Source: Dictyostelium discoideum (taxonomy: Eukaryota). From it: a stretch of 64,000 bases of DNA. The translations under genes were made by a program, and so were the position numbers. Numbering within the stretch: position 1 is the stretch's first letter; the number at the start of each line of letters is the position of its first letter. The stretch spans positions 3,552,001 through 3,616,000 of the forward strand of contig CM000153.2 of NCBI GenBank assembly GCA_000004695.1. Reading direction: 5' to 3'. Under the pieces are notes generated by a model. That model saw only the letters and a program-made list of their open reading frames with translations. It was not told the DNA's origin and searched no databases. Positions 1,333 to 58,988 of this stretch are shown here, piece by piece.

Positions 1333-2032
1333 ATGAAATTTATTATAATTTTAATTTTTATATATTTTATTAATAATATTAATGGATCTGTAATTAGGTT
1401 ATTAACATTTAATAATGATCAATGTGGTGGTGAACCATATAATATTATAACTAAAAATATATGTTCTTCTAAAGGTTGTTTTAAAATATCACCAGATAAA
1501 AAAATAATTTATGGTATGAGTTTAACATCAAATGAAAGAATAGTTTCAGGAAATAATATTGGAGAATGTATTAAATTTGATAATTCATCATCGCTAATTG
1601 AATATCAAGAAACCAATAATTTATATTCATTTGAAGGTTATTGTAATGAAATTATCACAGATTCATCAACAACTACAAATAATAATAATAATGAAAATAT
1701 TGAAGATTACAGTTGATTCATTAAAAGGTGAATATTGTGGATTTAATTCATCATCAAGCCAAGATTCAAATTATTTCTATTTTAAGAAATCATGTAATTT
1801 AGAAAATGGTATTATTACTCTATCAAATTGTAAATCATGTTTATCTGGTGACAAAAATTGTAAAATTATTCAAACAATTCAAACAAAAACTCAAACAACT
1901 TGCACATCAATTATATCATCTAAAAAATATACTTATCATAATATTTTTGATAATAATTCAAATATTTTAAATAATAATTTTAATTTTTTAACATTTTTAT
2001 TATTGTTAGTAATAATTTCTTTAATTATTTAA
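1333..2032 (+). CDS. Small secreted cysteine-containing protein with hydrophobic C-terminus (GPI-anchor-like; possibly ponticulin-like). Two ORF-track ORFs (1333..1716 and 1598..2032) joined either by a putative 76-nt intron (about 1637-1712, gttatt...acag) or by a frameshift.
   Basis: N-terminal signal peptide MKFIIILIFIYFINNINGS, then conserved Cys spacing (CGGEPY...C..KGC...C). The second frame continues VDSLKGEYCGF...CNLENGIITLSNCKSCLSGDKNCK...TCTSI and ends in a hydrophobic tail LTFLLLLVIISLII. Splicing 1636|1713 joins the two frames in phase (G|TT = Val). Confidence 0.45.
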
Positions 2033-2120
2033 TACTTTTAAAATAAAAAATAAAAATAATTCTAAAAACATTTAATTTTTTTTTTTTTTATTATTATTTA
2101 TTTATTTTTTTTTTTTTAAT

Positions 2121-2260
2121 TTACAACTCTAATTATACTAACAACGGGTTGATTAAGTACTTTTCTAATTGGACCACTTGCTGAAAAGAAAGAGAAAAAC
2201 ATTGAACAAATGAAAACTATTATAATTAATTGCCATGGTAAAGTCATTGGAATTGGTAAC
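2121..2260 (-). pseudogene. Truncated duplicate of the 3'-terminal coding segment of the FtsX-like permease gene at 2545-6120 (a gene-end fragment with no upstream exon).
   Basis: About 95% nucleotide identity to 2550-2690. On the minus strand it would encode ...GPIRKVLNQPVVSI..VV.* but the similarity stops abruptly at 2260. Confidence 0.5.
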
Positions 2261-2335
2261 AAATTAAAATTTTTCTTTTTATGGGATTTTTGGGTTTAAT
2301 AAAAAATTAAATTAATAAAAAAAAAATTAAAACTA

Positions 2336-2450
2336 AAACTCAAACGATTTGTGCATCAACTATATCATCTAAAAATATACTTATCATAATATTTTTGATA
2401 ATAATTCAAATAATTTAAATAATAATTTTAATTATTTAACATTTTAACAA
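2336..2450 (+). pseudogene. Duplicated 3' fragment of the secreted-protein gene 1333-2032, frameshifted and without a start.
   Basis: Matches 1885-2010 (codons ...TKTQTTCTSIISSKKYTYHNIFDNNSN...) with a single-base deletion in the aaaaaatat run. Confidence 0.45.
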
Positions 2451-2544
2451 ATAAAAATTTTAAATTTTAAAAATAATTATTCTAATATTTTAATTTAAAT
2501 TATTATTATTATTATTTTTTTATTTATTTATTTATTTTATTTTT

Positions 2545-4771
2545 TTAAGTTACAACTCTCATTATACTAACAACGGGTTGATTAAGTACTTTTCTAATTG
2601 GTCCAAAAGCTGAAAAGAAAGAGAAAAACATTGAACAAATGAAAACTATTATAATTAATTGCCAAGGTAAAGTCATTGGAATTGGTAACATTGTAAATAA
2701 TTGTCTTTGAAGGATCATTGTGAAACCAACAGTTGAACCAATAAACATACCCAACATTGAGGAAGCCATAACCAATACGAAAGCTTCATAGACGTAAATT
2801 CTAATCATCCAAGATTTTGGTATTCCCAATGCACATAAAACACCAATTTCTTTAGTTTGTTCTAAAATATTTGAATATACAGAAGACATTAAAGAGAAGA
2901 AAGAGATGGTCATTGCTAAAACTGTAGTAAAACTGAAAAAGTATTGAATGATCACAGAGGCCGTTGCAAAAGGTTTAATCTTTTCATAGTAATCCAACAT
3001 ATCGAAATCCTCTCTAAGATTACCAATTAAAAAGCTATTTAAACGATTCTTTATTGATTCTACAGCATCTTTATCATCAGTATTCAATTTCAAAATCACT
3101 TGATTCATTGGAATTTCACGTACTGATGAGAAGATACTACTTGCATACGAGAGATAAGTTGGAAATGATACGATTGAATCTTGATTTGTAACTGATGGGA
3201 ATTTAGAGAATTTAAAAGATGGTGCGCTATCTAACATTGCCGATGGTTTAACTAAGTGTCTAGTGGAATTAACTGATGAAGCTTCACCAGATTTAATATT
3301 TAATTGTAATAGGAATGATTGATCAATTGAAGCACCAATAACATCGGTATACAATGAACCAATGATTATCTTTTGACCACTAGTAAATGAATAGATTTGC
3401 TCGGAAAGATATTGAATATCATTCAAACTATAATCAGGATCAGGAGCGATTGAGCTTGCCTTTAAGAATCCAGGTAAAGTAGTAGCGAATAAGTTTGGAG
3501 AAATCGCATACATATTGGTGCCATCACTATAGATATGACCAATGTTTGTAATTTGAGATTGTTGATATTGTTTAGTCATAATTGAGAAAGATGAAGACTC
3601 CCAAGCGTAATCTTCAATCTCTGGTTGATATTGTGAGAGGAATTGATCGATTAACAAAGTTGACTCTGGTTGAAAGAATGGTTCACTACTTTTCACACTT
3701 AGATAACTACCATAGCTTTGTTGAACTTGATAATTCATTGATGCCTGTTGCATAGAGTATGAAACATTGACAAAGATAATGAATGCCAATGAAACTGCAT
3801 ACATGATAGCGGTCTTTCTATTTCTAAGTTTATGAGCTATTAAATTCTTTATAACCAATGATTTGATAGCACGTTTCTCCCAAAAGAAGAATAGATTAAC
3901 TACAGCCCTCTCTAGAATCTGTTCAACATTTAATGCTAAACTAACCAACCCCAATAACATTGCAATCAACAACATGAAGAACATATTTAAAAGTAGTGTC
4001 AAATTGAATGAAAGCAACGACAATGGGAACACATAATAAATTCCAAAGCCAAACACAGACAACAATGAGCCAATCAATGCAACCGATGATGAGAAACTGT
4101 TATCTTCACTACGTTCAATTGAGATTTGTACAGCGGCAGTCTTTGAATGTTTCACATCTAAAGAGTCATGTAAATTCTTACCCAATGCATTACGAATTGG
4201 AAAGATTGCCGACGCTATTGGAATTATAATACCCAATGCCGATGCTAACAATATGGCTTCACCTGTTAATTTTGGTGGAATTGGTACGCCAGTAATTGAT
4301 TTGAAAATAGCAGAAACAATGAATCCAAATACTTGAGCAATTAATAAACCTAAACCCCAAGATGGTACACTATAGGAGAATGCTTTGAATAGCATCAATT
4401 GAATAATACCATTTCTTGTTGTACCAATCATTCTCATTACACCCATTTCAAAGGTTCTAGTCTCTACATCAATCATCAACAATGAATAAATCAATAGAAT
4501 CGATAAAAACAATAGAATGAATATGATTACATTCAAAATCAAACCTAAAAATAATGCTACATATCTATTCTTTGAAAGTTCACTCATCACTGGTAATTCT
4601 GATGAAAGTTCATTAAATCCAACTTTATATAAAATTTTATTTGAAAAATCTACAATCTTTTCTAAAATTACATCTTGATTTGAATTAATATATGGTGTTA
4701 ATCTTGATGGTGGTAAATTTATAATAACTTGTTTTGAATAATCATAAAAATTAATTTTTGAAATATAACTT

Positions 4772-4810
<39 letters not shown>

Positions 4811-5996
4811 AAAAATTAATATATATATATATAATTTTTCCCCGATTTTTTTTTAAAAAAAAAAAAAAACAATATTAAATAAACTTACTTTTTTGAATTA
4901 TAATTCATTTCTGGATCAAATTGTGTAATTAAAAATGGTAAAAATGTTGAATATTCAATGATTATGGAAGAACTTTGATCGGATGGGAACTTACCTTCAG
5001 AAGAAGAGAAAGTATCAGCAACAGTTGCTGTTGCATAAATTACGGGTATGGTTGAAGAGGTGATATTGGCATGAGTCCAAATTGATGATAGAAATGATCT
5101 AGTTGGAATACGAATGAATATTGTATCACCCTTTGAAATTGATAATTTATTTGCTAAATTCTCTTGAACGTAAACTGTACCCTGTGGTGGAGCATCCAAT
5201 TTCCAATCACGACCTAATCCCATCCTCTTTTCACGTGCAGTATCAATCACAAACATCGATGCTTTACTTGCTACTGAATTACTACAAACTGATTCGAAAC
5301 AGTATGGTTCACATTGATTTGGCTCATCATGATATTTCCAAAGATTATCATTTGGATTTGTGTTACCGTTTGGACACGACTTTGCACTAACCACACTAAC
5401 AGTCCCATCGACTCTTGGTGAATGGTAACTATCATCTACTTCTTCTAATTCATATTGATTATTATTATTATTATCATCAAAATAACTTCCATTTGGTTCT
5501 TTATATGTACCAGCTAATAACTCTGATAACATTGTATAATTTAATTGATCTGATAATGTCCATGAACCAGGTGTCAACACCATATCCATTTCACCAACAC
5601 TTGCTTCTGACAAACTTAGGAATACCACTGGTGTGTTGGTGATGATGGAAACACATAGTGACACTATAAACACTACCAAGAAGCATGCGGAAAATCCTAA
5701 CAAATAGGATAACTTATTACGTAGATTGATTCTTAATGTATGTGAAAAGAAATGTTTCCAATGGTAGAGTAATGTTCTAAACCAATTCACTATCTTCACT
5801 TTTACTGTATCACCATTTATTGCATTTGATATACCCTTGAATTTACCATAAGGTTTACTTGATATTTTCTTCTTAATTTTACCATTGTCATCATAATTAT
5901 CTTTATTTTTTAAAAATGTTTGTTCTTCTGAATTTTCTATAAATTCATCAAAACTATCGCTACTACTACTACTACCATTACTTTTATTTATTTTTA

Positions 5997-6036
<40 letters not shown>

Positions 6037-6120
6037 ATCTCTTGATTTTATAAAATCATCATCTTCTTCATCATCATTATTATTTATAGATTGATATTTA
6101 TTATTCCTTTTATTTGTCAT
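2545..6120 (-). CDS. MacB/FtsX-type permease-like polytopic membrane protein with two FtsX (DUF214) modules and no ABC ATPase domain; about 1100 aa. This is a divergent member of the tandem family, called here the second-half ABC-transporter permease-like protein. Exons about 6120-4889 and 4768-2545, with an intron about 4888-4769 (gtaagt...ag) that splits a codon (AA|G).
   Basis: The ORF-track pieces 4885..6120 and 2545..4590 are on the same strand. The upstream piece ends at a GTAAGT donor and the downstream exon actually starts at 4768 (KYISKINFYDYSKQVIINLPPSRL...VMSELSK...). The first module reads RNKLSYLLGFSACFLVVFIVSLCVSIITN followed by a large extracytoplasmic domain and then LLIYSLLMIDVETRTFEMGVMRMIGTTRNGIIQLMLFKAFSYSVPSWGLGLLIAQVFGFIVSAIF, a classical FtsX TM2-4 signature. 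The second module ends EQTKEIGVLCALGIPKSWMIRIYVYEAFVLVMASSMLGMFIGSTVGF...GPIRKVLNQPVVSIMRVVT*. Confidence 0.7.
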
Positions 6121-7920: not shown

Positions 7921-10900
7921 TTAATCTTTTAAAACTGTTATGATTGATTGTTTTAATAAATGTCTAATTGGAGAAATTACAGAAATGATTGAGACAATTA
8001 AAGATGAAATAAAGAGTATAGGAATTAATTCCCATTGAATTGAAAATGGTATAATTTGTTGATCCATCATTGATTGTTTTAATAGAATAATATAGCTAAT
8101 GAAAAGACCAATAATAATACCAATTATACAACTACCAAATGAAAGTGTAAAAGCTTCGATAATATAGATTTTATAGATTTTAAAATTTGATAAACCAATT
8201 GATCTTAGAATACCAATTTCTTTTGATTGATTTTTAATACTTGTAAACATTGATGAAATTAATGAAAATGATGATATTATTATAGAGATTACTGTTGCGA
8301 AATCAAACAATAATGAATTTAATTTATCTGAACTGTTTGATGAATCTTTATATCTAATTATATATGGACTTTCAGAGTTTTTATTAAATAAACAATTTTT
8401 TGAAATTTTATATTGTAAAGAATCGATTTTATCGTCATCTAATGATTTTGGTTTAATTAAAATTAAATTAACTGGTATATTCCTAACTGAATCAATATTA
8501 CCACCTGATAATCCGACATATGCTGGAAAAGAAGTAATTACACTTTGAGTAAGATCTTCATCCGGAATTTCAGATACACTAAATGTACCTGCAGTTTTTA
8601 AATATGCTAATGGTTTCACTATATTTCTACCCATCCAGTTGAATGTTACATTATGTTTTTGACTTCGACCTGATGAATAATCTATTCTTCTATAGTTATT
8701 AATTTCAATATAATTTGATAATATAAATTCATCTGGTCCACCTTTTTCATCAAGATACATTAATTTCTTTTGAGATTGAGTTAATATTAATTTATTCATT
8801 GAATCTTTGCTATATAAAATCGTTGATAAATCAGTCATATCACCATTTTGATTAAAATCAACATCTTTATCAGTTTTTAAATTTTTTGAAACTGATGAAA
8901 CTTGAAAATAATCTTCCATTATTTCACTGAAATAAGTTGGGCCAACTGCATGTAATGATGATTTTAATGTTACACTTCTAGCAAAATCAGAAACATATGA
9001 TTTCTTATCATCGGGTTGAGAAAATTCACTAAATTTCATTGATCTTAATGAATAACTATCTAATTCATCATTATTTTCATCATCTAATATACGATCTAAA
9101 CATAGAGTTATATTTGATAAATCTTCTCTGGTGATAAAGGAACCAGTTTCAATCTTTAAAAGTGAACCAAACGATTGTTTCTCATTAGCATTTGCAGTTT
9201 CAACTTGAATTAAATATAAACAATTAATTATAATTATTAAAGATACTGAAACACCAAACATAAACATTGTACTTTTATTCTTTTTCTTGTGAGAAATTAA
9301 ATTTTTATATAAAATTATTCTGATTATATTTTTTGCAAAAGGATCTATTAAAGTAATAATGTAAACTAATGTTTTTGAAATGATTAAATGGAAATTCATC
9401 ATTAAGAAAATTGCTGATATTAAAACTAAAATTAACAATCCAAATAATAATGCTAATAATGAACTAAAATTACCAGATAATAATAATTTTGGTAATAAAA
9501 TACAACCAACTATACCTAAAGCGCTTAATGACAAACCAATCCATGATAAATACTTTCTATATTCTGAATCAGTTGAATCTTTATCAATTGTTGTAATTTG
9601 ATGTGATGATGATATATTTGATCTACTAGTATCCAATTGCTCACCTAATGAAAAACTTAATGCTTTTCTAATTGGTAATATCAATGATACCATTGGTATT
9701 AGAAAACCAAGTAAAATTGAATAAACAATTGAATCTACTGTTAAATAATTTGAAATTTCATCTGAATTTGTAAAACGTTTTAATTGATCTATAATTATAA
9801 ATAAAAAGATTTGAGAAATTATTAAACCTAATATAATTGATGGGACTGTGAATATTATTGTTTTTGAAACTATTAGCTCGATGATGAAACTAAATTTAGC
9901 ACCTAACATTCTAAATACACCGTTATTAAATGTCATTGAATCCACATCAATCATTAATGTTGTATAAATTAAAAGAATTGATAATAAAAGGAATACAAAA
10001 ACTATTAAATTTAATAATTGACCTAAATTACTTGAAACTTCGTTACTCTTGTATAATTCAGTCATTATTGGTGTTGAAATATCAACTCTACCAACACCAA
10101 TTTTGTAAACTAATTTCGAGGCAACTTTATTTACTCTTTGTAAAGTTTTATCTAAATCTGTACCATAATACATTGGCAATCTGGGGGATGGAAATTTCAT
10201 AACTATATTTTCAACATATTCTTTTATATTTTTATTTTTCATTAAATCTACATTCCATGTTGGATTTACTTGTTCAACCATTGAATCATAGAATGAGTCA
10301 ATATCTATTAAAACTGATGGTATTATCTCACCCAATTCGAAACCTAGTTCAAATGGATTCTCTGTATTATTGAAAAATCCATTAACTTTTAATTTTGTTA
10401 TTATATATGGTGATTTTTCAATTTGAGTTGTTGAAATCATTGAATCTGTTAATAATGTTGATAATAATCTAACTGCTGGTACTATTATAAAAATTTCATC
10501 ACCAACATTTGCATGGATTGATTGAGCAAGTGATTCTATAATTAAACATGTTCCTTTTGGTTGTGATCCATAACCAAATGTTGATTTTATACCCATATCA
10601 TTCTCTTTTTTAAAATCTAGTAATTGGAAACCCATAAATACATGATTTCCTTCACCACTACATCTATTAATAAAACAAGTGCTCTCTGTGCAATTTAAAC
10701 CACTCCCATTTGAAAAGTATCTTGATTCAATATTATCTTGTACAACTTTTTCACAATAACTTACTGGATATCCATATGTATCTATAAAATTAAATCTTGG
10801 TGAATTATTTTTAAAAAAACTATTTTTATTACTAATACCACTACCACTATATAATCCATGGGTATTCTTTTCATCAGCTCCAACTCTATTATCATCTTTT

Positions 10901-11643
10901 ATTTCTCTAGTTGTATCATTTAAAATTTGATCAAATAATGTATAATTTAATCTTATAGTAAAACCTTTTTCTAAATCTATTGAAAGTTGTTGTTTTCCTG
11001 ATATTATTAAATCTATATGATTAGCATCAGAATCTGCTTTACTTAAAAATATTAATGATATATTTGATAATACTGATAAACCAGTTGCAACTAAAATTAC
11101 TACTAAAAAACATGATATAAAACCAATACTATAATTCAATTTACTCCTTTTAATACCATTTATTGAATATTTAATTATTGAAAACCATTCTCCAATAGTT
11201 GTATTAAATCCAATATTTGTTAAATTTATTTGAATCTTTTTTAAAATAAATCCAAAATATTTTAAAAATTCTAAACTTCCAAAAATTAATATTATAAAAA
11301 ATTCCAAAAAAACAAAAATTCCTTCAATTATTATTTTAAGTTTATTGAAAAAATAATTCTCTTTTTTAATATTATTATTATTATTATTATTTATATTATC
11401 ATCATAATAATAAATATTGTCACCTTGACAATCATTTTCAAGTGATCCTTTTAAAATTGATAATTCAATTGGGTCACATTCACCAACACTCTCTCTCCAT
11501 TTATTATAAAATTTTTTATTAATTAAAATTGGATCATTCTCATTCCTATTATTTATAGAACTCTTTAAAATTGAACTATTTTCATTGATGATACTATAAT
11601 CACCATCATCATTATCATTCCCACTTGATTCATAATTATACAT
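7921..11643 (-). CDS. MacB/FtsX-type double-permease-like membrane protein, paralog A; 1240 aa, apparently a single exon.
   Basis: A full-length ORF. The first module, GIKRSKLNYSIGFISCFLVVILVATGLSVLSNISLIFLSKADSDANHIDLI, follows the MacB TM1 pattern (R.K..L..LGI.IGVA.V....G......S.I.S.G.N.I.I). It is followed by a ~400 aa Cys-containing extracytoplasmic domain and the FtsX core LLIYTTLMIDVDSMTFNNGVFRMLGAKFSFIIELIVSKTIIFTVPSIILGLIISQIF. The second module has a TM, a large domain and NQSKEIGILRSIGLSNFKIYKIYIIEAFTLSFGSCIIGIIIGLFISY. Confidence 0.8.
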   Translation of the reverse strand: MYNYESSGNDNDDGDYSIINENSSILKSSINNRNENDPILINKKFYNKWRESVGECDPIELSILKGSLENDCQGDNIYYYDDNINNNNNNNIKKENYFFNKLKIIIEGIFVFLEFFIILIFGSLEFLKYFGFILKKIQINLTNIGFNTTIGEWFSIIKYSINGIKRSKLNYSIGFISCFLVVILVATGLSVLSNISLIFLSKADSDANHIDLIISGKQQLSIDLEKGFTIRLNYTLFDQILNDTTREIKDDNRVGADEKNTHGLYSGSGISNKNSFFKNNSPRFNFIDTYGYPVSYCEKVVQDNIESRYFSNGSGLNCTESTCFINRCSGEGNHVFMGFQLLDFKKENDMGIKSTFGYGSQPKGTCLIIESLAQSIHANVGDEIFIIVPAVRLLSTLLTDSMISTTQIEKSPYIITKLKVNGFFNNTENPFELGFELGEIIPSVLIDIDSFYDSMVEQVNPTWNVDLMKNKNIKEYVENIVMKFPSPRLPMYYGTDLDKTLQRVNKVASKLVYKIGVGRVDISTPIMTELYKSNEVSSNLGQLLNLIVFVFLLLSILLIYTTLMIDVDSMTFNNGVFRMLGAKFSFIIELIVSKTIIFTVPSIILGLIISQIFLFIIIDQLKRFTNSDEISNYLTVDSIVYSILLGFLIPMVSLILPIRKALSFSLGEQLDTSRSNISSSHQITTIDKDSTDSEYRKYLSWIGLSLSALGIVGCILLPKLLLSGNFSSLLALLFGLLILVLISAIFLMMNFHLIISKTLVYIITLIDPFAKNIIRIILYKNLISHKKKNKSTMFMFGVSVSLIIIINCLYLIQVETANANEKQSFGSLLKIETGSFITREDLSNITLCLDRILDDENNDELDSYSLRSMKFSEFSQPDDKKSYVSDFARSVTLKSSLHAVGPTYFSEIMEDYFQVSSVSKNLKTDKDVDFNQNGDMTDLSTILYSKDSMNKLILTQSQKKLMYLDEKGGPDEFILSNYIEINNYRRIDYSSGRSQKHNVTFNWMGRNIVKPLAYLKTAGTFSVSEIPDEDLTQSVITSFPAYVGLSGGNIDSVRNIPVNLILIKPKSLDDDKIDSLQYKISKNCLFNKNSESPYIIRYKDSSNSSDKLNSLLFDFATVISIIISSFSLISSMFTSIKNQSKEIGILRSIGLSNFKIYKIYIIEAFTLSFGSCIIGIIIGLFISYIILLKQSMMDQQIIPFSIQWELIPILFISSLIVSIISVISPIRHLLKQSIITVLKD

Positions 11644-11743: not shown

Positions 11744-12506
11744 ACTGATTATTTTTTGACTTTTTTTTAAATTCTTTTATTTTTAATTCCCTAATTTTTT
11801 TTTTTTCTTTTATTTTTTTTTTTTCTATTTTTTTTTTTTTACTTTCTGATTATATTTTTTTTTTACTTTTTTTTTTTTTTACTTTCCGATTATTTTTTTT
11901 TTTTAAAAAAAAAAATAATTTATTGGTCTTTCAATTTTTTTTAAAAAGTAAAGAAAAAAAAAAAAAAAATAAGTGTAAAATTTAAAGTTTTACAAATGAT
12001 TGCAAATGTGTCTAGAAAATAAAAAAAAGAAAAAAAAAAAAAAAACGAAAATTAGTTTTGAAATAATCTTGTTTTTTAGGGATTTTCTTGAAAACACAAA
12101 AAACTATTAATCCCGAACCTTTAAAATTTTGAAAAATTAATTATTTTTTTTTTTTTTACTTTTATAATTATTGCTCCATTTTAAATCGATATTTTTATAT
12201 TTTTAGAAAAAAAAAAAAAAAATAAAAATAAAAGAATTAATAATGTAAAGAAAAAGCCAATTATAGATCAAGAGATTTGAGGGGAATGTTTTTTTTTTTT
12301 ATTATAATCATTTTTTTTATAAATTTCCTATTTTCTTGAAAAAAAAAAACTGCAAGGCACTGTAAAGAAAATTTTTTGGTCTGAGGAATAGTGTTTTATT
12401 TTTTTAATTTGGATTTTAATTAAAAAAAAATAAAAATAAAAATAAAAAAAATAATAAAAGCCTGGAAGAATTTGGACAATCACTTTGTGGTTCCAGAAAA
12501 AACTAT

Positions 12507-12567
12507 ATCATAAATTATAAAAAAAACCTCAGAAGATACAAGGAAATTCTTTGAAGATCCAATCACT

Positions 12568-12608
<41 letters not shown>

Positions 12609-12728
12609 ATAATTATCCATAAAATACAATAAAACAAATAAAATATTTTTATTCTTAATTTTTTGAAAATCTTCAAGGAATTTCCTTGTATCTTCTCAGA
12701 GGTTCTTTTTATAATTTATAATATAGTT
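12507..12728. repeat. Inverted repeat with ~55-bp arms (about 12507-12563 and 12672-12728) separated by a ~105-bp A-rich spacer, lying 25-240 bp 3' of the stop codon of permease paralog B.
   Basis: Left arm tatcataaattataaaaaaaacctcagaagatacaaggaaattctttgaagat. Reverse complement of right arm ataaattataaaaagaacctctgagaagatacaaggaaattccttgaagat. There are 3-4 mismatches over about 50 bp. Confidence 0.75.
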
Positions 12729-12750
12729 TTTTTTTTTTTTTTTAAAGAAA

Positions 12751-15700
12751 TTAATCTTTTAAAACTGTAATAATTGGTTGTTTTAATAAATGTCTAATTG
12801 GAGAAAATACAGAAATGATTGAGACAATTAAAGATGAAATGAAGAGTATAGGAATTAATTCCCATTGAATTGAAAATGGTATAATTTGTTGATTCATAAC
12901 TGATTGTTCCAATAGAATTGTATAGCTAATGAAAAGACCAATAATAATACCAATTATACAACTACCAAATGAAAGTGTAAAAGCTTCGATAATATAGATT
13001 TTATAGATTTTAAAATTTGATAAACCAATTGATCTTAGAATACCAATTTCTTTTGATTGATTTTTAATACTTGTAAACATTGATGAAATTAATGAAAATG
13101 ATGATATAATCATTGAGAGTACAGTTGCAAAATCAAAGAATAATGAATTTAATTTATCTGAACTATTTGATGAATCTTTATATCTAATTATATATGGACT
13201 TTCAGAGTTTTTATTAAATAAACAAGTTTCTGAAATTTTATATTGTAATGAATCAATTAAATCGTCATCTAATGATTTTGGTTTTAATAAAATTACGCTA
13301 ACTGGTATATTCCTAACTGAATCAATATTACCACCTGATAATCCGACATATGCTGGAAAAGAAGTAATTACACTTTGAGTAAGATCTTCATCCGGAATTT
13401 CAGATACACTAAATGTACCTGCAGTTTTTAAATATGCTAATGGTTTCATTACATTTCGACCAATCCAATTGAAGGTTACATTTTGTTGTTGATTTTTACC
13501 AGATGGATCAATTTTTGTATAATTATTAATTTCAATATAATTTGATAAAAGAAATTCATCTGGACCACCTTTTTCATCAAGATACATTAATTTCTTTTGA
13601 GATTGAGTTAATATTAATTTATTCATTGAATCTTTACTATATAAAATCGTTGATAAATCAGTCATATCACCATTTTGATTAAAATCAACATCTTTATCAG
13701 TTTTTAAATTTTTTGAAACTGATGAAACTTGAAAATAATCTTCCATTAATTCACTGAAATAAGTTGGACCAACTGCCCATAGTGATGATTTTAAAGTTTT
13801 AGTTTTAGCAAGATCAGAAACAATTGATTTCTTATCAGGTTGAGAAAATTCACTAAATTCCATTGACCTTAATGAATAACTATCCAAACCATTATTTTCA
13901 TCATCGATTATTCGATCTAAACATTGAGTTATATTTGATAAATCTTCCCTTTTTATAAAGGTACTGGTTTCAATCTTTAAAAGTGAACCAAAGTATTGTT
14001 TATTTGAAGCATTTGAAATTTCAACTTGAACTAAAAATAAACAATTAATTATAATTATTAAAGATACTGAAACACCAAACATAAACATTGTACTTTTATT
14101 CTTTTTCTTGTGAGAAATTAAATTTTTATATAAAATTATTCTAATAATATTTTTTGCAAAAGGATCTATTAAAGTAATAAGGTAAACTAATGTTTTTGAA
14201 ATGATTAAATGGAAATTCATCATTAAGAAAATTGCTGATATTAAAACTAAAATTAACAATCCAAATAATAATGCTAATAATGAACTAAAATTACCAGATA
14301 ATAATAATTTTGGTAATAAAAAACAACCAACTATACCTAAGGCGCTTAATGATAAACCAATCAATGATACAAACTTTCTATATTCTGAATCAGTTGAATC
14401 TTTATCAATTGTTGTAATTTGATGTGATGATGATATATTTGATCTACTAGTATCCAATTGCTCACCTAATGAAAAACTTAATGCTTTTCTAATTGGTAAT
14501 ATCAATGATACCATTGGTATTAGAAAACCAAGTAAAATTGAATAAACAATTGAATCTACTGTTAAATAATTTGAAATTTCATCTGAATTTGTAAAACGTT
14601 TTAATTGATCTATAATTATAAATAAAAAGATTTGAGAAATTATTAAACCTAATATAATTGATGGGACTGTGAATATTATTGTTTTTGAAACTATTAGCTC
14701 GATGATGAAACTAAATTTAGCACCTAACATTCTAAATACACCGTTATTAAATGTCATTGAATCCACATCAATCATTAATGTTGTATAAATTAAAAGAATT
14801 GATAATAAAAGGAATACAAAAACTATTAAATTTAATAATTGACCTAAATTACTTGAAACTTCGTTACTCTTGTATAATTCAGTCATTACTGGTGTTGAAA
14901 TATCAACTCTACCAACACCAATTTTGTAAATTAATTTTGAAGTAAATTCACTAACTCTTTGTAAAGTTTTATCTAAATCTGTACCATAATACATTGATAA
15001 TCTTGGTGATGGAAATTTCATAACTATATATTCGACATATTCTTTAATATTTCTATTTTTCATTAAATCTACATTCCATGATGGATTTACTTGTTCAACC
15101 ATTGAATCATAGAATGAGTCAATATCTATTAATATCGATGGTATTGTTTCACCCAATTCGAAACCTAGTTCATATGGATTCTCTGTATTATTGAAAAATC
15201 CATTAACTTTTAATTTTGTTATTATATATGGTGATTTTTCAATTTGAGTTGTTGAAATCATTGAATCTGTTAATAATGTTGATAATAATTCCACTGCTGG
15301 TACTATTATAAAAATTTCATCACCAATCTTTAATTCTGTTGCTTTAGCCAATAATTCTACCATTAAACATGTACCCTTTGGTTGTGATCCATAACCAAAT
15401 GTTGATTTTATACCCATATCATTCTCTTTTTTAAAATCTAGTAATTGGAAACCCATATATACATGTTCTCCATCACCACCGCATCTATTAATAAAACAAG
15501 TACTCTCTGTGCAATTTAAATCACTACCATTTGAAAAGTACCTTGCTTCAATATTATTTTCAACAATGTTTTCACAATAATTTACGGGATATCCATATGT
15601 ATCTATCATATGAAATCTTGGTGAATTATTTTTAAAATTTTTTTTTTTACTTCCACCACTACTTGAACTCTGGATTATAGTTTCACTAGCTCCAGCACTA

Positions 15701-16383
15701 TTTTCACCTTTTATTTCTATATTCTCTATTTTTTCAAAATTTAAAATTGCATTATTTAAAATTTTATCAAATAATGTATAATTTAATCTTATAGTAAAAC
15801 CTTTATCTAAATCTATTGACTGATGTTGTTTTCCTGATATTATTAAATCTATATGATTAGCATCAGAATCTGCTTTACTTAAAAATATTAATGATATATT
15901 TGATAATACTGATAAACCAGTTGCAACTAAAATTACTACTAAAAAACATGATATAAAACCAATACTATAATTTAATTTACTCCTTTTAATACCATTTATT
16001 GAATATTTAATTATTGAAAACCATTCTTCAATAATTGTATTAAATCCAATATTTTTTAAATTTATTTTAATTTTTTTTAAAATTAATCCAAAAAATTTAA
16101 ATTCTTTTTTTAAAAATTCCAAAGCTCCAATAATTATTGAGGTTAATAATTTAAAAAAATATAAAATTCCTTTGATTATTATTTTAAATTTATTATTTTT
16201 TTTAAAATGATAATCGTTACTGTCACAATCTTCATCAAATGATGTTAAAATTGCATAATTTTTAGTGATGGAATTATCGTCATCATCTCCATCCTCATCT
16301 TCATTACAGTTGTCATTTTCACTTGGTCCATAAAAATTATGCATTTCTATTCTTTTTTTTATTTTAAAATTATTGGTTAGCAT
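12751..16383 (-). CDS. MacB/FtsX-type double-permease-like membrane protein, paralog B; 1210 aa. Its N-terminal ~90 residues are unrelated to those of A and C.
   Basis: Very high identity to 7921-11643 and 17277-21032 across most of its length, with identical stretches such as KSPYIITKLKVNGFFNNTENP and LLIYTTLMIDVDSMTFNNGVFRMLGAKFSF. The N-terminus MLTNNFKIKKRIEMHNFYGPSEND... is different, and the first M could be preceded by a missed 5' exon. Confidence 0.8.
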   Translation of the reverse strand: MLTNNFKIKKRIEMHNFYGPSENDNCNEDEDGDDDDNSITKNYAILTSFDEDCDSNDYHFKKNNKFKIIIKGILYFFKLLTSIIIGALEFLKKEFKFFGLILKKIKINLKNIGFNTIIEEWFSIIKYSINGIKRSKLNYSIGFISCFLVVILVATGLSVLSNISLIFLSKADSDANHIDLIISGKQHQSIDLDKGFTIRLNYTLFDKILNNAILNFEKIENIEIKGENSAGASETIIQSSSSGGSKKKNFKNNSPRFHMIDTYGYPVNYCENIVENNIEARYFSNGSDLNCTESTCFINRCGGDGEHVYMGFQLLDFKKENDMGIKSTFGYGSQPKGTCLMVELLAKATELKIGDEIFIIVPAVELLSTLLTDSMISTTQIEKSPYIITKLKVNGFFNNTENPYELGFELGETIPSILIDIDSFYDSMVEQVNPSWNVDLMKNRNIKEYVEYIVMKFPSPRLSMYYGTDLDKTLQRVSEFTSKLIYKIGVGRVDISTPVMTELYKSNEVSSNLGQLLNLIVFVFLLLSILLIYTTLMIDVDSMTFNNGVFRMLGAKFSFIIELIVSKTIIFTVPSIILGLIISQIFLFIIIDQLKRFTNSDEISNYLTVDSIVYSILLGFLIPMVSLILPIRKALSFSLGEQLDTSRSNISSSHQITTIDKDSTDSEYRKFVSLIGLSLSALGIVGCFLLPKLLLSGNFSSLLALLFGLLILVLISAIFLMMNFHLIISKTLVYLITLIDPFAKNIIRIILYKNLISHKKKNKSTMFMFGVSVSLIIIINCLFLVQVEISNASNKQYFGSLLKIETSTFIKREDLSNITQCLDRIIDDENNGLDSYSLRSMEFSEFSQPDKKSIVSDLAKTKTLKSSLWAVGPTYFSELMEDYFQVSSVSKNLKTDKDVDFNQNGDMTDLSTILYSKDSMNKLILTQSQKKLMYLDEKGGPDEFLLSNYIEINNYTKIDPSGKNQQQNVTFNWIGRNVMKPLAYLKTAGTFSVSEIPDEDLTQSVITSFPAYVGLSGGNIDSVRNIPVSVILLKPKSLDDDLIDSLQYKISETCLFNKNSESPYIIRYKDSSNSSDKLNSLFFDFATVLSMIISSFSLISSMFTSIKNQSKEIGILRSIGLSNFKIYKIYIIEAFTLSFGSCIIGIIIGLFISYTILLEQSVMNQQIIPFSIQWELIPILFISSLIVSIISVFSPIRHLLKQPIITVLKD

Positions 16384-17276: not shown

Positions 17277-20200
17277 TTAATCTTTTAAAACTGTAATAAT
17301 TGGTTTCTTTAATAAATGTCTAATTGGGGAAACTACAGAAATGATTGAGACAATTAAAGATGAAATGAAGAGTATAGGAATTAATTCCCATTGAATTGAA
17401 AATGGTATAATTTGTTGATTCATAACTGATTGTTCTAATAGAATTGTATAGCTAATGAAAAGACCAATAATAATACCAATTATACAACTACCAAATGAAA
17501 GTGTAAAAGCTTCAAAAATATAGATTTTATAGATTTTAAAATTTGATAGACCAATTGATCTTAGAATACCAATTTCTTTTGATTGATTTTTAATATTTGT
17601 AAACATTGATGAAATTAATGAAAATGATGATATAATCATTGAGAGTACTGTTGCAAAATCAAAGAATAATGAATTTAATTTATCTGAACTGTTTGATGAA
17701 TCTTTATATCTAATTATATAAGGACCTGTTGATTTTAGATTAGATAAACATTTTTGACTAATTTTTAATCTTAATGAATCAATTAAATCATAATCTAATG
17801 ATTTTGGTTTAATTAAAATTACACTAACTGGTATATTCCTAACCGAGTCGATATTACCACCTGATAACCCAACATATGCTGGAAATGAGGCTATTACACT
17901 TTGAGTTGCACCTTTATCTGGAATCTCAGATACACTAAATGTACCTGCAGTTTTTAAATATGCTAATGGTTTCATTAAATAACGACCCATCCAATTTAAT
18001 GTTACATTTTGTTGTTGATTTTTGCCAGATGGATCAATTTTTGTATAATTATTAATTTCAATATAATTTGATAATAAATATTCATCACTACCACCTTCTT
18101 GATCAAGATACAATAATTTCTTTTGAGATTGAGTTAATATTAATTTATTCATTGAATCTTTACTATATAAAATCGTTGATAAATCAGTCATATCACCATT
18201 TTGATTAAAATCAACATCTTTATCAGTTTTTAAATTTTCTGAAACTGATGAAACTTGAAAATAATCTTCCATTAATTCACTGAAATAAGTTGGACCAACT
18301 GCAAATAATGATGATTTTAAAATTCTAGTTCTACCAAGATCAGAAACCGTTGATTTCTTATTATCAGGTTGAGAAAACTCACTAAACTCCATTGATCTTA
18401 ATGAATAACTATCTAAACCATTATTATCATCCATTAAACCATCTAAACATTGGGTAATATGTGATAAATCTTCTCTAAGTAAAAATGTTTCTGTTTCAAT
18501 CTTTAAAAGTGAACCATAGTATTGTTTTCTAGAAGCATTTGCAGTTTCAACTTGAACTAAATATAAACAACTAATTGTAATAATTAAAGATACAGAAATA
18601 CCAAACATAAACATTGTACCTTTATTCTTTTTCTTGTGAGAAATTAAATTTTTATATAAAATTCTTCTAATAATATATTTTGCACCAGGATCGATTAAAG
18701 TAATAAGGTAAACTAATGTTTTTGAAATGATTAAATGGAAATTCATCATTAAGAAAATTGCTGATATTAAAACTAAAATTAACAATCCAAATAATAATGC
18801 TAATAATGAACTGACATCACCGGATAATAATAATTTTGGTAATAAAAAACATACCACTATACCAAAAGCACTAATTGATAAACCAATCAATGATACAGAC
18901 TTTTTAAATTCTGCATCTTTTGAACCTTTATCAATTGTTGTAATTTGATGTGATGATATTTTTGATCTACTAGTATCCAATTGTTGATTTAATGAAAAAC
19001 TTAATGCTTTTCTAATTGGTAATATCAATGATACCATTGGTATTAGAAAACCAAACAAAATTGAAAATAGAATTGAATTTACTGTTAAATACTTTGAAAT
19101 ATCTGCTGAATTTGATATACTCTTTAATTGATCTACGACTATAACTAAAAAGATTTGTGAAATTATTAAACCTAATATAATTGATGGTATTGTGAAAATT
19201 ATTGTTTTTGAAACTATTAGCTCGATGATGAAACTAAATTTAGCACCTAACATTCTAAATACACCGTTATTAAATGTCATTGAATCCACATCAATCATTA
19301 ATGTTGTATAAATTAAAAGAATTGATAATAAAAGGAATACAAAAACTATAATATTTAATAATTGACCTAAATTATTTGAAACATCTTTGCTCTTGTATAA
19401 TTCAGTCATTACTGGTGTTGAAATATCAACTCTACCAACACCAATTTTGTAAATTAATTTTGAGCAATAATCACCCACACGTTGTAAAGTTTTATCTAAA
19501 TCTGTACCATAATACATTGATAATCTTGGTGATGGAAATTTCATAACTATATATTCGACATATTCTTTTAAATTTCTATTTTTCATTAAATCTACATTCC
19601 ATGTTGGATTTACTTGTTCAACCATTGAATCATAGAATGAGTCAATATCAATTAATATAGATGGTATTGTTTCACCCAATTCAAAACCTAATTCATAACC
19701 TAATTCGTATGGATTCTCTGTATTATTGAAAAATCCATTAACTTTTAATTTTGTTATTATATATGGTGATTTTTCAATTTGAGTTGTTGAAATCATTGAA
19801 TCTGTTAATAAAGTTGATAATAATTTAACTGCTGGTACTTTTAAAAAAATTTCATCACCAATCTTTAATTCTATTCTTTTAGCCAATGATTCTATCATTA
19901 AACATGTACCCTTTGGTTGTGATCCATAACCAAATGTTGATTTTATACCCATATCATTCTCTTTTTTAAAATCTAGTAATTGGAAACCCATATATACATG
20001 TTCTCCATCACCACCACATCTATTAATAAAACAAGTACTCTCTGTGCAATTTAAATCACTACCATTTGAAAAGTACCTTGCTTCAATATTATTTTCAACA
20101 ATGTTTTCACAATAATTTACGGGATATCCAAATGCATCTATCATATGAAATCTTGGTGAATTATAATCAAAATTATTAAAACCACTACTATCACCACCAA

Positions 20201-20685
20201 TAAATAAACTATTGAAACTATTAGCTTCATTCAATTCTATTAATTTTTCAAAATTTAAAGTTGCATCATTTAAAAGTTGATCAATTAATGTATAATTTAA
20301 TCTGACATCAATAATTTCACCTAAATCTATTGATTGTTGTTTGCCTGATATTATTAAATCAATACCATAGGCATCAGAATCTGCTTTACTTAAAAATATT
20401 AATGATATATTTGATAATACTGATAAACCAGTTGCAACTAAAATTACTACTAAAAAACATGATATAAAACCAATACTATAATTCAATTTACTCCTTTTAA
20501 TACCATTTATTGAATATTTAATTATTGAAAACCATTCTTCAGTAATTTTAAAAAATCCAATATTTCTTAAAATTAATTTAATCTTTTTTAAAATTATTTT
20601 AATCCTTTTTAAAATTGATTTAAAAAATTCTAAAATTATTATTATTATTTTTATTATTATTATTTTAAATTTTTTTATATATAAA

Positions 20686-20716
<31 letters not shown>

Positions 20717-21032
20717 CATCTTCATCATTATTATTATTATTATTATCATTTGATGATTTTTTAAAATCTGATAATTCAACTTGACTATATTCACCAACAC
20801 TATCTCTCCAATTATTATAATATTTTTTGTCACTAATTAAAATTGTATCATTTTCATTATTTTCACTCCTTTTCATTGCACTTGTTAATATTGAATTATT
20901 ATTGTTGAGGTTGTTTTTATCCTCATCGTCATCATCGTCGTTATTATTATTGTTATTGTTTTCTTCATAATTATTTACACTATCTTCATTATCGTTAGCA
21001 CTTATTCCAAAATAATTATCATTTTGAACCAT
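17277..21032 (-). CDS. MacB/FtsX-type double-permease-like membrane protein, paralog C; 1251 aa.
   Basis: A full-length ORF with the same architecture and high identity to A and B. The N-terminal acidic, Asn-rich cytosolic region shares KKYYNNWRDSVGE with paralog A (KKFYNKWRESVGE). Confidence 0.8.
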
Positions 21033-23038: not shown

Positions 23039-23091
23039 GTTGACCTCACAGCAATTAACTAGTTTTAAAGAAACCCCCTTGTCAACTGTAC
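23039..23091 (+). ncRNA. Candidate Class I non-coding RNA, about 50 nt.
   Basis: GTTGAC-CTCACAGCAA-ttaactagttttaaagaaaccccctt-GTCAAC-tgtac followed by a T15 run. The 5' GTTGAC and 3' GTCAAC are perfectly complementary, forming a terminal stem. Immediately 3' of the 5' stem arm, CCTCACAGCAA differs at one position from the conserved Class I 11-nt motif CCTTACAGCAA. The length lies within the 42-65 nt range. The locus is intergenic and GC-elevated. Confidence 0.45.
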
Positions 23092-54965: not shown

Positions 54966-55267
54966 AAAAAAAAAAAAATAAAATAAAATAAAATAATAAA
55001 AAAAAAATAAAAATAATAGTAAAAGAAAAGAGAGTAATAATAGTAATTAATATCTATAGATATTTTTCTTTTTCTTTTTTTTTTTTTATCTGATTTAATT
55101 TCTTTGAATTTTATATTTTTTTAATTAATTTTTGTGTGGTTTTTGAAAAGATATTTTTTTTTTTTTTTATTTTTTTTTTTATTTTTTTTTTTTTCCAATT
55201 TTCAACCATAAAAAAACAGTGTGCCCCTTTCTCAATAAACACACAAACACATAAAAATAAAAATAAA

Positions 55268-56449
55268 ATGGATATTGATAATGAAAAATCAAATAAAACT
55301 TATAAATTATATAAACAAGTATTTAATAATAAATTTTTATCAAATTCAATTTATAGAAATGTTTATAAATTTAATCAACAAATTACAGATTGTTATTCAC
55401 ATGGAAGATCATTGTTTAAATATTGTGTAAACTATCAAGAAGCAACACTTGATTGGATAATTTCAAATAAAAAATATTCATTATTATTTGATAAAATTAA
55501 ATCAAATCATTGTTTTAATAAAACTGAATTATCATTTGACCATTTAATAATAGTGATTAAACAAATAATGAATCTTGAAAATGATTGTAGTGCTAATAAT
55601 AATAATAATAATAATAATAGTGGTGAAAATGATAAAGAAAATAAAGAAACTAATTTAGAATTATTAAAACAATTTTTTAAAATTAATTCAAATAATTTAT
55701 TTAATATTAAATTAAATCATCCAAATTTAACATATTATAGAGATATTAATTTAATAGAATTTGCAATACATACACAATGTATTGAATTTTTAAAATTAGT
55801 TTATTATTATTCAAAAGATAATAAAATAATTTTTAAAAATAATGGTGGTGATAATGATGATGATGATTATTTAGATTTATCATTAAAAATTGGAAATTTA
55901 GAAATAATTAAATTTATTCATAAAGAAATGGGGATAACATGTTTTAAGGATAAATTAAAGGCATTACATTTTTCATTAATGTCTGAAAATAGAAATAAAG
56001 TAGTTGAATATCTATTAGATGAAATTAAATATCAACCACCAACACTTTATTCAGGTATTTTTGATAAATTCTTTGAAAACCTAATTCAACTTGAATTTAA
56101 ATTATTTAAAAGATTATATCAACTTGGTTCACCAATTTTATATCATAGTTATGCTATACCATATCTAATCAATGAAAAATTCAATGATACTTTAAATGAT
56201 TCAAAAATTAATTTTAAAAATAAATTACTTGATTTCATTCAATGTTCAATTTTCGTTTGTAGTTTAGGTTATTTTAATGATAAATTTAATAAAAATATTG
56301 ATTATAATTCATTATTATTAAAAATTGAAAAAATATTAAATTCAAATAATTTAGAAACTACATCATCTTCTTCATCATCATCATCCAGTACTATATTTTC
56401 AAAATTTAAAAATATATTTATTGATTCAACAAATAATAATAATAATAAA

Positions 56450-56480
<31 letters not shown>

Positions 56481-57916
56481 AAATTGATTATTTTATTGAA
56501 AAAGAAATAAAAAGAATATTTATTTTTGAATTTTTAGTACCATTAGATTTTATAAAAAGGGATGTACTTTGTATGAAGGTTATTGATTTTGCAAGAGAAT
56601 ATGGTGAATATAATTTGTTAACAAGTTCATTAGATAAATTTAAAAATCAAACTTCAATAGTTGATATATGTACTTCAATTTTAAAGATTGCAAATTTTAA
56701 TTCTGATTCAAAATTAATAAATTTTCTTGAAAATAATTATTTCAATCATAAAGAATTAGTATCATTTTTAAAAATTAATGACAAAGTTGATGAAGATACA
56801 TCATTAGTTTATTATATAAGTAATATTAATAATTATTATAATTTTGATAATAATAATAATAATAATACAAACATTAATAATAATAATAATAATAAATTTG
56901 AAAATTTATTTGATACAAAAAAAATTAAAATTCAAGATCAAATTCAATATTTATCAATAATTTTAAAAAATTCAATAAATTCTTTAATACCAAATAGAGT
57001 ATTATTACAACATATTTTATTAAATAATGAAATTGGAATTGTTTTTGAAAATATTGAACAAATAATGAATGTAATAAGTGGATATAATTCAAAAATATGG
57101 AATGAATTTTCAGAAATTTCAAAAAAGAATTTAAAGAGTGATAATTTTGAAATAGTAACCCCACCACTTGATAGGCTATTTAGTGCAGTTTTATTTGTTG
57201 GGAATAAAGAATTGTTTAAATTCATTTTTAGGAAATATAAAGATTATTTTAAATGGGATTCTCAAATTATTGGTATAAAAGTAGTAAGAAGTAATGATTT
57301 AGATTTCATTCAATTCCTATTTGATAATGATATTGGTAATTTAAAATTTTCAATTAATTTTTGTACAAATAGGGTATCGATTAAATATATGACTGAAACA
57401 TTGGGTCTATATTTTAGTGAGGATTTATTGGTTTCAATTTGTGAGAATCAAAATATTAATAATTGGAATTCAAATTATATTTTCAATTATATTTTAAATT
57501 TTAAAATTAATAATTTAAATCATTATCAATATGTCGTTATTCCTCAAACTATGAAAAATTATAAATATTGTAAATCAATTGAAATTAATATATGCAATGG
57601 TAGTTTATTATCAGAGAGAGTTAAAATAATTAATAATTCTACTCATTTCAATAGAGATACTATGGAAAAATGGTTTTTTGAAAATACTAGAAATATTGCA
57701 AAAATTATTGCACTTGGTAATTATTATCATTTAGTTGATTTACTCAATGAAATTGAACAATATTCAAACTCTTTTGTAGGTTGTAACCCAAAGTATATTT
57801 TTAAAAGATCTTATAATATTGCTCATGTAGGAATTGAATATAACCCAAAAATAAAAAATATTATAAAATCAATTTTAGAATCTTTAAATCAAATTTCTAA
57901 CATTCAATCCTGGTAA
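55268..57916 (+). CDS. Hypothetical Asn-rich protein of about 880 aa with possibly degenerate ankyrin-like helical repeats.
   Basis: A long uninterrupted ORF. MDIDNEKSNKTYKLYKQVF... is preceded by the aaaATG context. The ORF-track start at 55136 lies in a poly-T tract. Confidence 0.5.
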
Positions 57917-58115: not shown

Positions 58116-58164
<49 letters not shown>

Positions 58165-58988
58165 ATAAAAGAGGATAGAATTTTTAAATAATTATTATTT
58201 ATTAATTAATTTATTTATTTAATTTTGTTAATCAATAAAATTGATTTTTTTTTTTATCTTTTATCTGATTAAAGTTAAAAAAATAATAATTTAAAAATTT
58301 AAATCTATCCTCTTTTATCATTTTACTGATTATAGGAAAATAATTTTATTTAAAAAAAAAAAATAATAGAATATTAAAAAAAAAAAAAAAATTATTATTT
58401 TTTTTGTCCCAGTATAATTTTTCATATGACAAATTGATTTCTTTTAAACTTTTTTTTTTTTTTCAAATAAAAGATTCGAACATGAAAATATTAAAATTAA
58501 TTTAAATTTAATTTTTATTTTTTTTTTTTTTTAATTTTTTTTTTTTTTTTTTTTTTTTTTTCATTTTATTTTAAAAGTTATAAATTAATTTATTAATTAA
58601 TAAAAAAAAAAAAAAAAAAAAAAAAAAAAGAAAAAGTAGCAATTGTATTGTATAGGCGTGTTACTTTAAATTTTATTTATTTATTTTATAATATTTTATT
58701 TTATTTTCCAACCCACACGTAAACCCACCCACCCTTCATATTTTTTTTAATTTTTTCTTTTATTTTTTCTTTGTTTTTTTTTTTTTTTTTTTGTTTTTTT
58801 TATTTTTATTGTTAATTTAATATTTATTTATAATATATTTATCTATTTATTTATTTTTTTTTTTTTAAAAAAAAAAAAAAACCACACACATATACATCAA
58901 ATAAACTATATAGGTTTAAACTTTTTATTTATTTGTATAATAATAAAATCATAATAATCATAATAATAATTAATATAATATATCAATA

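Follow-up and report, generated by a model that had tools for sequence, protein, structure and literature searches.

Most descriptions of template-switch mutations come from primates, rodents, yeast and bacteria. Such events are typed in the four-point model (Loytynoja and Goldman, 2017), in which type 3-2-1-4 leaves an inverted repeat only (PMC5453318). Template switching can make perfect hairpin stems in a single step and seed new miRNA genes (PMC10710096). For the copied fragments, a minimum of 14 nt was applied in the first of these studies (PMC5453318), and the second gives lengths of 'up to 83 bases' (PMC10710096). In Dictyostelium discoideum itself, the closest described hairpins are those of the miRNA loci, which are intergenic, AT-rich and form a stable hairpin (Liao 2018, PMC6161686; Meier 2016, PMC4894637; Edelbroek 2024, PMC11014262); a folding energy below -0.2 kcal/mol per nt has been used as a criterion for them, and the precursors listed in a table of the first of these studies measure 105-179 nt. 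A third comparison is offered by MITEs and by thug-S of D. discoideum, short non-coding units with inverted arms at their ends.

The inverted repeat described here lies 3' of the stop codon of the D. discoideum gene DDB_G0285667, within a 64-kb window, by which we mean the whole stretch of DNA that was analyzed. We consider it most probable (roughly 80%) that the repeat is a lineage-specific inverted duplication that arose in situ, likely by a template switch. Inverted duplication of the template-switch type with formation of a hairpin is a known kind of mutation, and the locus is a new example of it. As in the four-point type 3-1-2-4 or its mirror 1-3-4-2 (PMC5453318), the left flank is followed by the reverse complement of adjacent ancestral sequence and then by the right flank, the inverted repeat surrounds a spacer that is itself inverted, at least in its Y1 and A-run parts (Table 1), and one event explains a region in which ordinary alignment fails. 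The locus differs from the described cases in its host, an amoebozoan (compare PMC5453318), and in the copied fragment, which at ~112-174 nt is longer than those quoted in PMC5453318 and PMC10710096; a literature search returned no report of template-switch events in Dictyostelium or in amoebozoans. Similarly to the hairpins and miRNA genes attributed to template switching (Monttinen, Frilander and Loytynoja, 2023, PMC10710096; Monttinen and Loytynoja, PMC8794818), it would combine a near-perfect stem made in one step, within DNA that an existing promoter already transcribes, with point mutations that accrued later.

The case is of interest as a long near-perfect hairpin that would have arisen in one mutational step in the 3' flank of a gene, with four outgroups that keep the pre-mutation state and an origin that can be retraced nearly to the single base. 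Found in an extremely AT-rich Dictyostelium genome and with a fragment of well over 100 nt, it extends the known range of template-switch mutations. It also bears on a possible source of the mostly species-specific, highly complementary miRNA hairpins of Dictyostelium, and it cautions annotators that such repeats are not to be called MITEs. The repeat probably matters little to what the permease gene does.

The inverted repeat and its setting

The window has a G+C content of 22% and contains a tandem array of FtsX-type permease genes. The middle one of its three full-length copies, paralog B, matches Pfam FtsX with E = 1.6e-32 and is 100% identical to DDB_G0285667 of D. discoideum AX4 (Table 1). 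Because the permease genes are encoded on the minus strand, the window as given displays the antisense strand of the repeat. The two arms (12497-12558 and 12669-12732; 62 and 64 nt) differ by three mismatches and one 2-nt indel. A repeat finder reported the pair in two parts free of gaps, one of 43 nt (84%) and one of 37 nt (92%), since the 2-nt indel shifts the register between the arms; a gapped comparison of the cores alone (12503-12558 against 12669-12726, 56 and 58 nt) gave 91.4% identity with three mismatches and one gap, a match with E = 2.8e-15 against the 64-kb window. Between the arms lies a spacer of 110 nt (12559-12668), composed of CCAATCACTGGT, an uninterrupted run of 36 A's and 62 nt of AT-rich DNA. 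The repeat starts 18 nt past the paralog B stop codon, or 24 nt when the A/T run common to both arms is not counted, as the six bases of the A17 run nearest the arm core (12727-12732) also belong to the repeat. On the gene-sense strand, the ATG of paralog A follows ~850 nt downstream of it.

Table 1. Positions in the 64-kb window of the parts of the inverted repeat, its flanks and the neighbouring permease genes.
Feature	Position	Strand	Description
Conserved downstream flank d	12460-12496	-	Sense strand GGAACCACAAAGTGATTGTCCAAATTCTTCCAGGC; collinearity with outgroups resumes here
Left (distal) arm	12497-12558	+	AAAAAA + CTATATCATAAATTATAAAAAAAACCTCAGAAGATACAAGGAAATTCTTTGAAGAT; reverse-complement copy of six A's + X; AX4 and ACTFIT only
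Y1, CCAATCACTGGT	12559-12570	+	Ancestral continuation of X; in AX4 joined to the distal arm only, inverted
A36 homopolymer (T36 in gene sense)	12571-12606	+	Inverted copy of the A-run after CCAATCAYTGG in outgroups
Y2, AT-rich spacer part	12607-12668	.	Homologous to outgroup 3' flank; aligns in either orientation
Right (proximal) arm, core	12669-12726	-	Ancestral X in original orientation; sense strand CTATATTATAAATTATAAAAAGAACCTCTGAGAAGATACAAGGAAATTCCTTGAAGAT
A17 run, gene sense	12727-12743	-	Between stop codon and X; outgroups have an A-run there too
FtsX-type permease paralog A	7921-11643	-	Full-length ORF, tandem array
FtsX-type permease paralog B	12751-16383	-	Stop codon 12751-12753; DDB_G0285667
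FtsX-type permease paralog C	17277-21032	-	Full-length ORF, tandem array

An earlier note on this DNA had described near-perfect inverted arms with an A-rich spacer, placed 25 bp past the stop codon of paralog B. The arms were borne out and are slightly longer than it described, and the distance was about right. The same note had called the arms unusual in AT-rich intergenic DNA, had held low complexity to be an unlikely explanation for them and had reported them absent 3' of paralogs A and C, all of which agrees with what we observe. A mixed-base 23-mer of the arms occurs at two sites in the window, one in each arm, with 0.00 matches expected from shuffles, and the other arm matches across the 64 kb are AT-only words of 11-15 nt and nothing else. 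An alignment search of the 3' flanks of paralogs A and C found nothing resembling the arm. We also scanned the window for inverted repeats from 14-mer seeds holding at least four G/C, a generic scan being dominated by pairs of A-runs and T-runs; two local inverted repeats with a mixed-base seed were found, and the other one (58163-58321) is much shorter.

The arm unit, X, holds a mini-palindrome of its own, CAAGGAAATTCCTTG, at 12677-12691 and again at 12536-12550. The core of this palindrome, GGAAATTCC, is invariant in all D. discoideum-complex 3' flanks examined while the DNA around it drifts, and to judge from this pattern it could be a conserved 3'-flank motif.

Related genomes and the origin of the repeat

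The locus was compared with those of five further D. discoideum-complex genomes and of D. citrinum, each reached via the orthologue of paralog B or its neighbours: ACTFIT (L001; GCA_054883475.1, a chromosome-level assembly), D. discoideum ACTFIW (L002) and ACTFIR (L006), D. cf. discoideum ACTFIY (L003) and ACTFIZ (L004), and D. citrinum (L005). Since a query with the whole repeat is swamped by poly-A/T matches, these loci were searched with mixed-base arm cores. Among the loci searched, only the window and ACTFIT contain both arms. ACTFIT is 99.8% identical to the window over 15.6 kb, and its arms are identical to those of AX4, with a T-run (the A36 run of Table 1) that is variable in length and 7 nt shorter. 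As this independent assembly (GCA_054883475.1) has the same repeat with identical arms, an assembly artefact is ruled out. At such identity the two carriers count as one lineage and give no independent estimate of age or frequency.

The four genomes without the repeat, ACTFIW, ACTFIR, ACTFIY and ACTFIZ (n = 4), serve as outgroups. A single copy of X is present in ACTFIW, ACTFIR and ACTFIY, and a degenerate single copy in ACTFIZ; in all four it lies directly 3' of the stop codon of the B orthologue and in the orientation of the AX4 proximal arm, and a counterpart of the distal arm was found in none of them. The proximal arm is thus native 3'-flank sequence, older than the repeat. The comparison of strains for presence or absence that the earlier note had proposed therefore separates AX4 and ACTFIT, with the repeat, from four outgroups in the ancestral state without it, and the change can be polarised. 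Gene B of ACTFIW aligns with the window at 95.1% identity; the alignment is interrupted precisely over 12455-12726 and picks up again at 12454, so that an unalignable gap coincides with the repeat region. The identities of the window to the related loci, from 95% down to 86%, suggest that the repeat-bearing lineage is nested.

The arm-core search of D. citrinum found no recognisable copy of X; in its place, the 3' flank of the D. citrinum permease (L005 9736-9935) has an (AAT)n microsatellite of more than 45 units. Simple repeats also stand just past the conserved flank in ACTFIW (L002 9860-9925) and ACTFIR (L006 7030-7105), each a (TTTTA)n tract with 10 or more units, and AX4 has a few irregular TTTTTA-type repeats at ~12415-12455.

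In all four outgroups, the sense strand reads X, then C[CT]AATCA[CT]TGG, then T or G, then an A-run (alignment A1, 4/4), the continuation being shortened to AACCACTGG in ACTFIW and ACTFIR. After GAAGAT, the proximal arm of AX4 and ACTFIT reads TTTCAAAAAATTAAG, unlike the outgroups. The distal arm of the same two genomes, taken as its reverse complement, reads ...GAAGAT-CCAATCACTGG-T-A36, as the outgroups do. An orientation test by local alignment with shuffles pointed in the same direction: the segment made of CCAATCACTGGT and the A-run matched the outgroup sense strands when inverted (p <= 0.014) and not when direct (p = 0.27-0.96), in four of four outgroups. The distal arm and its continuation originated as the reverse complement of the native flank. 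This copy takes in six A's from the A-run ahead of X, and it adjoins the conserved flank GGAACCACAAAGTGATTG...TTCCAGGC, which is common to all genomes. Moreover, both AX4 arms read AACC where every outgroup reads CAC[CT], a shared derived base that makes the two arms each other's closest relatives.

The event that we favour can be set out step by step. The ancestral sense order would have been stop codon, A-run, X (58 nt), CCAATCAYTGG-T (Y1), A-run, Y2 and flank d. In the lineage of AX4 and ACTFIT, a reverse-complement copy of the six A's, X, Y1 and the A-run, possibly with Y2, would have been placed between X and d, giving the AX4 order of X, the reverse complement of A6 + X + downstream sequence, and d. 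The copied stretch would measure ~110-175 nt and lie just after the stop codon, next to its own source. A single replication template switch and return of type 3-1-2-4 (mirror 1-3-4-2) would produce this arrangement, an inverted repeat around an inverted spacer. Two variants could lead to it as well, namely a switch of type 3-2-1-4 after which the proximal copy lost Y1 and the A-run, and break repair with fold-back priming, which would give the same product. The data favour an inverted duplication of the template-switch type, an explanation that was not among the options of the earlier note.

To compare such an event with the observed sequence, we built predicted sequences from ACTFIR, ACTFIW and ACTFIY as ref[:p1] + revcomp(ref[p3:p2]) + ref[p4:], with p1, p2 and p4 scanned. 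Aligned globally to AX4, these predictions score 270 (ACTFIR, L006), 259 (ACTFIW, L002) and 315 (ACTFIY, L003), against 103, 90 and 53, respectively, for plain linear alignment, so one switch and return fits far better than linear alignment (259-315 vs 53-103). The scoring of the scan marginally favours type 3-2-1-4, under which the proximal copy must later have been stripped of CCAATCACTGGT and the A-run by a deletion; on parsimony we favour 3-1-2-4, because no extra step would be needed. The 62-nt Y2 aligns to the outgroups in two orientations with scores of 37 and 41-43 (null 25.6 +/- 4.3), probably because the ancestral Y2 was a quasi-palindrome, an A-rich half followed by a T-rich half (p = 0.012 in ACTFIR, p = 0.83 in ACTFIW). 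Given this ambiguity of Y2, the exact switch points and the subtype are not fixed. The sequence alone fits both a replication template switch and fold-back break repair and cannot separate the two, and inspection of the junctions by eye for microhomology (TTCAAAG and CTTGAA motifs) gave nothing firm.

Folding of the hairpin and the question of function

The RNA folding that the earlier note had suggested gave a strong signal: the gene-sense RNA of the hairpin region folds at -88.1 kcal/mol (z = -11.0), and the same region as DNA at -50.5 kcal/mol (z = -7.2), with no shuffle folding as well in either case. For the segment from stop codon to conserved flank, the predicted energies are -90.4 kcal/mol in AX4 (z = -11) and -90.6 in ACTFIT (z = -13), compared with -30.7 in ACTFIW (z = -2.3), -28.1 in ACTFIR (z = -1.6) and -18.8 in ACTFIY (z = -2.0), the outgroups that were folded. 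The repeat-bearing lineage has gained predicted fold stability; in these predictions the stable structure would have arisen with the duplication, and the relatives would be without notable structure. The consequence of the event would be a potential stem of 62 bp with a loop of 110 nt.

Polarised by the outgroups, the changes since the event are A>G (AAAAAG) and A>T (CTCTG) in the proximal arm and T>C, C>T and a 2-nt deletion in the distal arm. They are independent in each arm, and none is compensatory. The arms have diverged by ~5% in substitutions, compared with a difference of ~7-8% between AX4 and ACTFIW in the flanking intergenic DNA, which suggests that the duplication is probably not very recent, an estimate from a handful of changes.

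The first AATAAA on the sense strand lies in the loop (12653-12648), 98-103 nt after the stop codon. Together with what is general in eukaryotic 3'-end formation, this position predicts cleavage ahead of the distal arm. The mature mRNA would then probably end before the T36 run and the distal arm and so contain one arm only, and the stem would form only in read-through transcripts. We regard the hairpin as probably selectively neutral, because it is absent from close relatives, shows no compensatory changes and has an AATAAA in its loop.

[quoted passage not shown] The predicted stem is very stable, at -0.31 kcal/mol per nt, and lies below the limit of -0.2 used for D. discoideum miRNA hairpins; it is on the sense strand, directly 3' of an expressed-type gene, where read-through transcription is plausible; two of the three arm base differences are G-U compatible on that strand; and new miRNA hairpins are documented to arise by template switching (PMC10710096). 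However, the hairpin is not conserved, being absent from all four outgroups, and the changes since the duplication weaken its pairing with no compensation. Its 236 nt exceed the 105-179 nt of the listed D. discoideum precursors, and its 62-bp stem and 110-nt loop are far larger than the ~35-bp stem that animal pri-miRNAs prefer. The predicted cleavage site in the loop would remove the distal arm from the mRNA. The repeat is also not in the lists of the D. discoideum miRNA studies: no 12- to 14-mer of the arms occurs in the text supplements of PMC6161686, PMC4894637 and PMC11014262, and as miRNA Table S1 of the first gives sequences in DNA letters, a match there would have shown. Similarly, Rfam gave no match at the hairpin, either for the window at gathering thresholds or for 12300-12900 with E <= 10; a Class I RNA elsewhere in the window was the one significant hit. 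A test for a conserved structured RNA was negative with respect to structure in the outgroups folded, compensatory changes and an Rfam family, and a full-text literature search with the arm sequence (as DNA and RNA, both strands) and the ids of the neighbouring genes returned no papers. Nothing in this evidence indicates a function of the hairpin.

Less likely still is the specific case in which the hairpin is transcribed by read-through and cut by DrnB into small RNAs that act on the mRNA of DDB_G0285667, the only evident target because X was found nowhere else in the sequence examined. If this were true, the locus would be a newborn small-RNA locus specific to a strain lineage, and the first amoebozoan regulatory hairpin whose birth by template switch is reconstructable base by base.

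Other accounts of the repeat and the permease array

Among the options of the earlier note was a MITE-like footprint, or a small non-autonomous element with the arms as its terminal inverted repeats; on this account, a DNA transposon would have landed 3' of paralog B. Two inverted arms of ~60 nt with a short non-coding spacer between them do resemble a MITE, and D. discoideum has small DNA-transposon-like repeats such as thug-S. We consider this origin very unlikely. No target-site duplication is present at the borders of the repeat, where the flanks read GTGGTTCCAG and a T-run with AAAG (TTTTT..AAAG), and the A6 and T6 beside the arms are inverted with respect to each other, not direct. In the four genomes that lack the repeat, the site is not empty but keeps one arm after the stop codon together with sequence homologous to the spacer, a pattern that marks an inverted duplication made in place and not an insertion. 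Further copies are lacking: the arm is absent elsewhere in the 64-kb window and was found only at the orthologous site in ~98 kb of related loci. In these respects, and in that its arm is native 3'-flank sequence, the repeat differs from MITEs and would differ from thug-S as well. An exact 18-mer scan of metagenome contigs gave 33 matches, none of which extends beyond 22 nt. The contigs are unrelated, with a G+C content of 31-55%, and the matches are due to chance and have no bearing on the MITE question.

Long palindromes are unstable and frequently deleted. With six genomes sampled, this instability could in principle have hidden a repeat that was ancestral to the D. discoideum complex and lost one arm in the other lineages. 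Such a history is as improbable as a MITE. It needs a loss in up to four outgroup lineages, unless they share a branch, and each loss must leave X joined directly to CCAATCAYTGG, that is, an inversion plus a deletion; moreover, the derived base is shared by both AX4 arms against all outgroups. A bacterial-style terminator was dropped, the organism being a eukaryote, and the recombination hotspot that the earlier note had tied to the duplications of the array was rejected because the array predates the repeat, tandem permeases being present in all D. discoideum-complex loci compared, those without the repeat included.

The second inverted repeat of the window (58163-58321) has a perfect, mixed-base 17-nt core (TGATAAAAGAGGATAGA) and arms that extend through AT-rich sequence to ~38-41 nt, with a 5-nt indel, around an AT-rich spacer of ~80 nt. 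A homologue search with the gene beside it returned no orthologues from the outgroup strains. It is intergenic, ~250 nt downstream of the ORF 55136-57916 (DDB_G0285701) and directly after a T44 run, and its RNA folds at -38.6 kcal/mol (z = -5.9). Possible readings of it are a further template-switch product and a hairpin RNA locus.

The array itself has four members, not three, as paralog A is followed downstream on the minus strand by one more FtsX-type permease copy (2545-6120), split in two ORFs. The ORF 2545-4590 encodes 681 aa and matches Pfam FtsX with E = 1.7e-25, and the ORF 4885-6120 encodes 411 aa and has no Pfam match. The copy is collinear with a gene of 1154 aa in ACTFIR, and the two ORFs probably belong to a single gene, interrupted at ~4591-4884 by an intron or a disruption. 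Both D. cf. discoideum genomes (L003 and L004) have one full-length FtsX paralog more, placed between the orthologues of B and A. The annotation of L003 and L006 splits the B orthologue into two gene models, and it may be a pseudogene or carry a frameshift. The positions concerned in these relatives are 1844-4957 and 6001-9747 in L003, 6001-9681 in L004 and 2988-7423 in L006. Beyond the array, at 23039-23088 on the plus strand, the window contains an Rfam match to Dicty_Class_I_RNA with 42.3 bits, slightly over the gathering score of 41.5.
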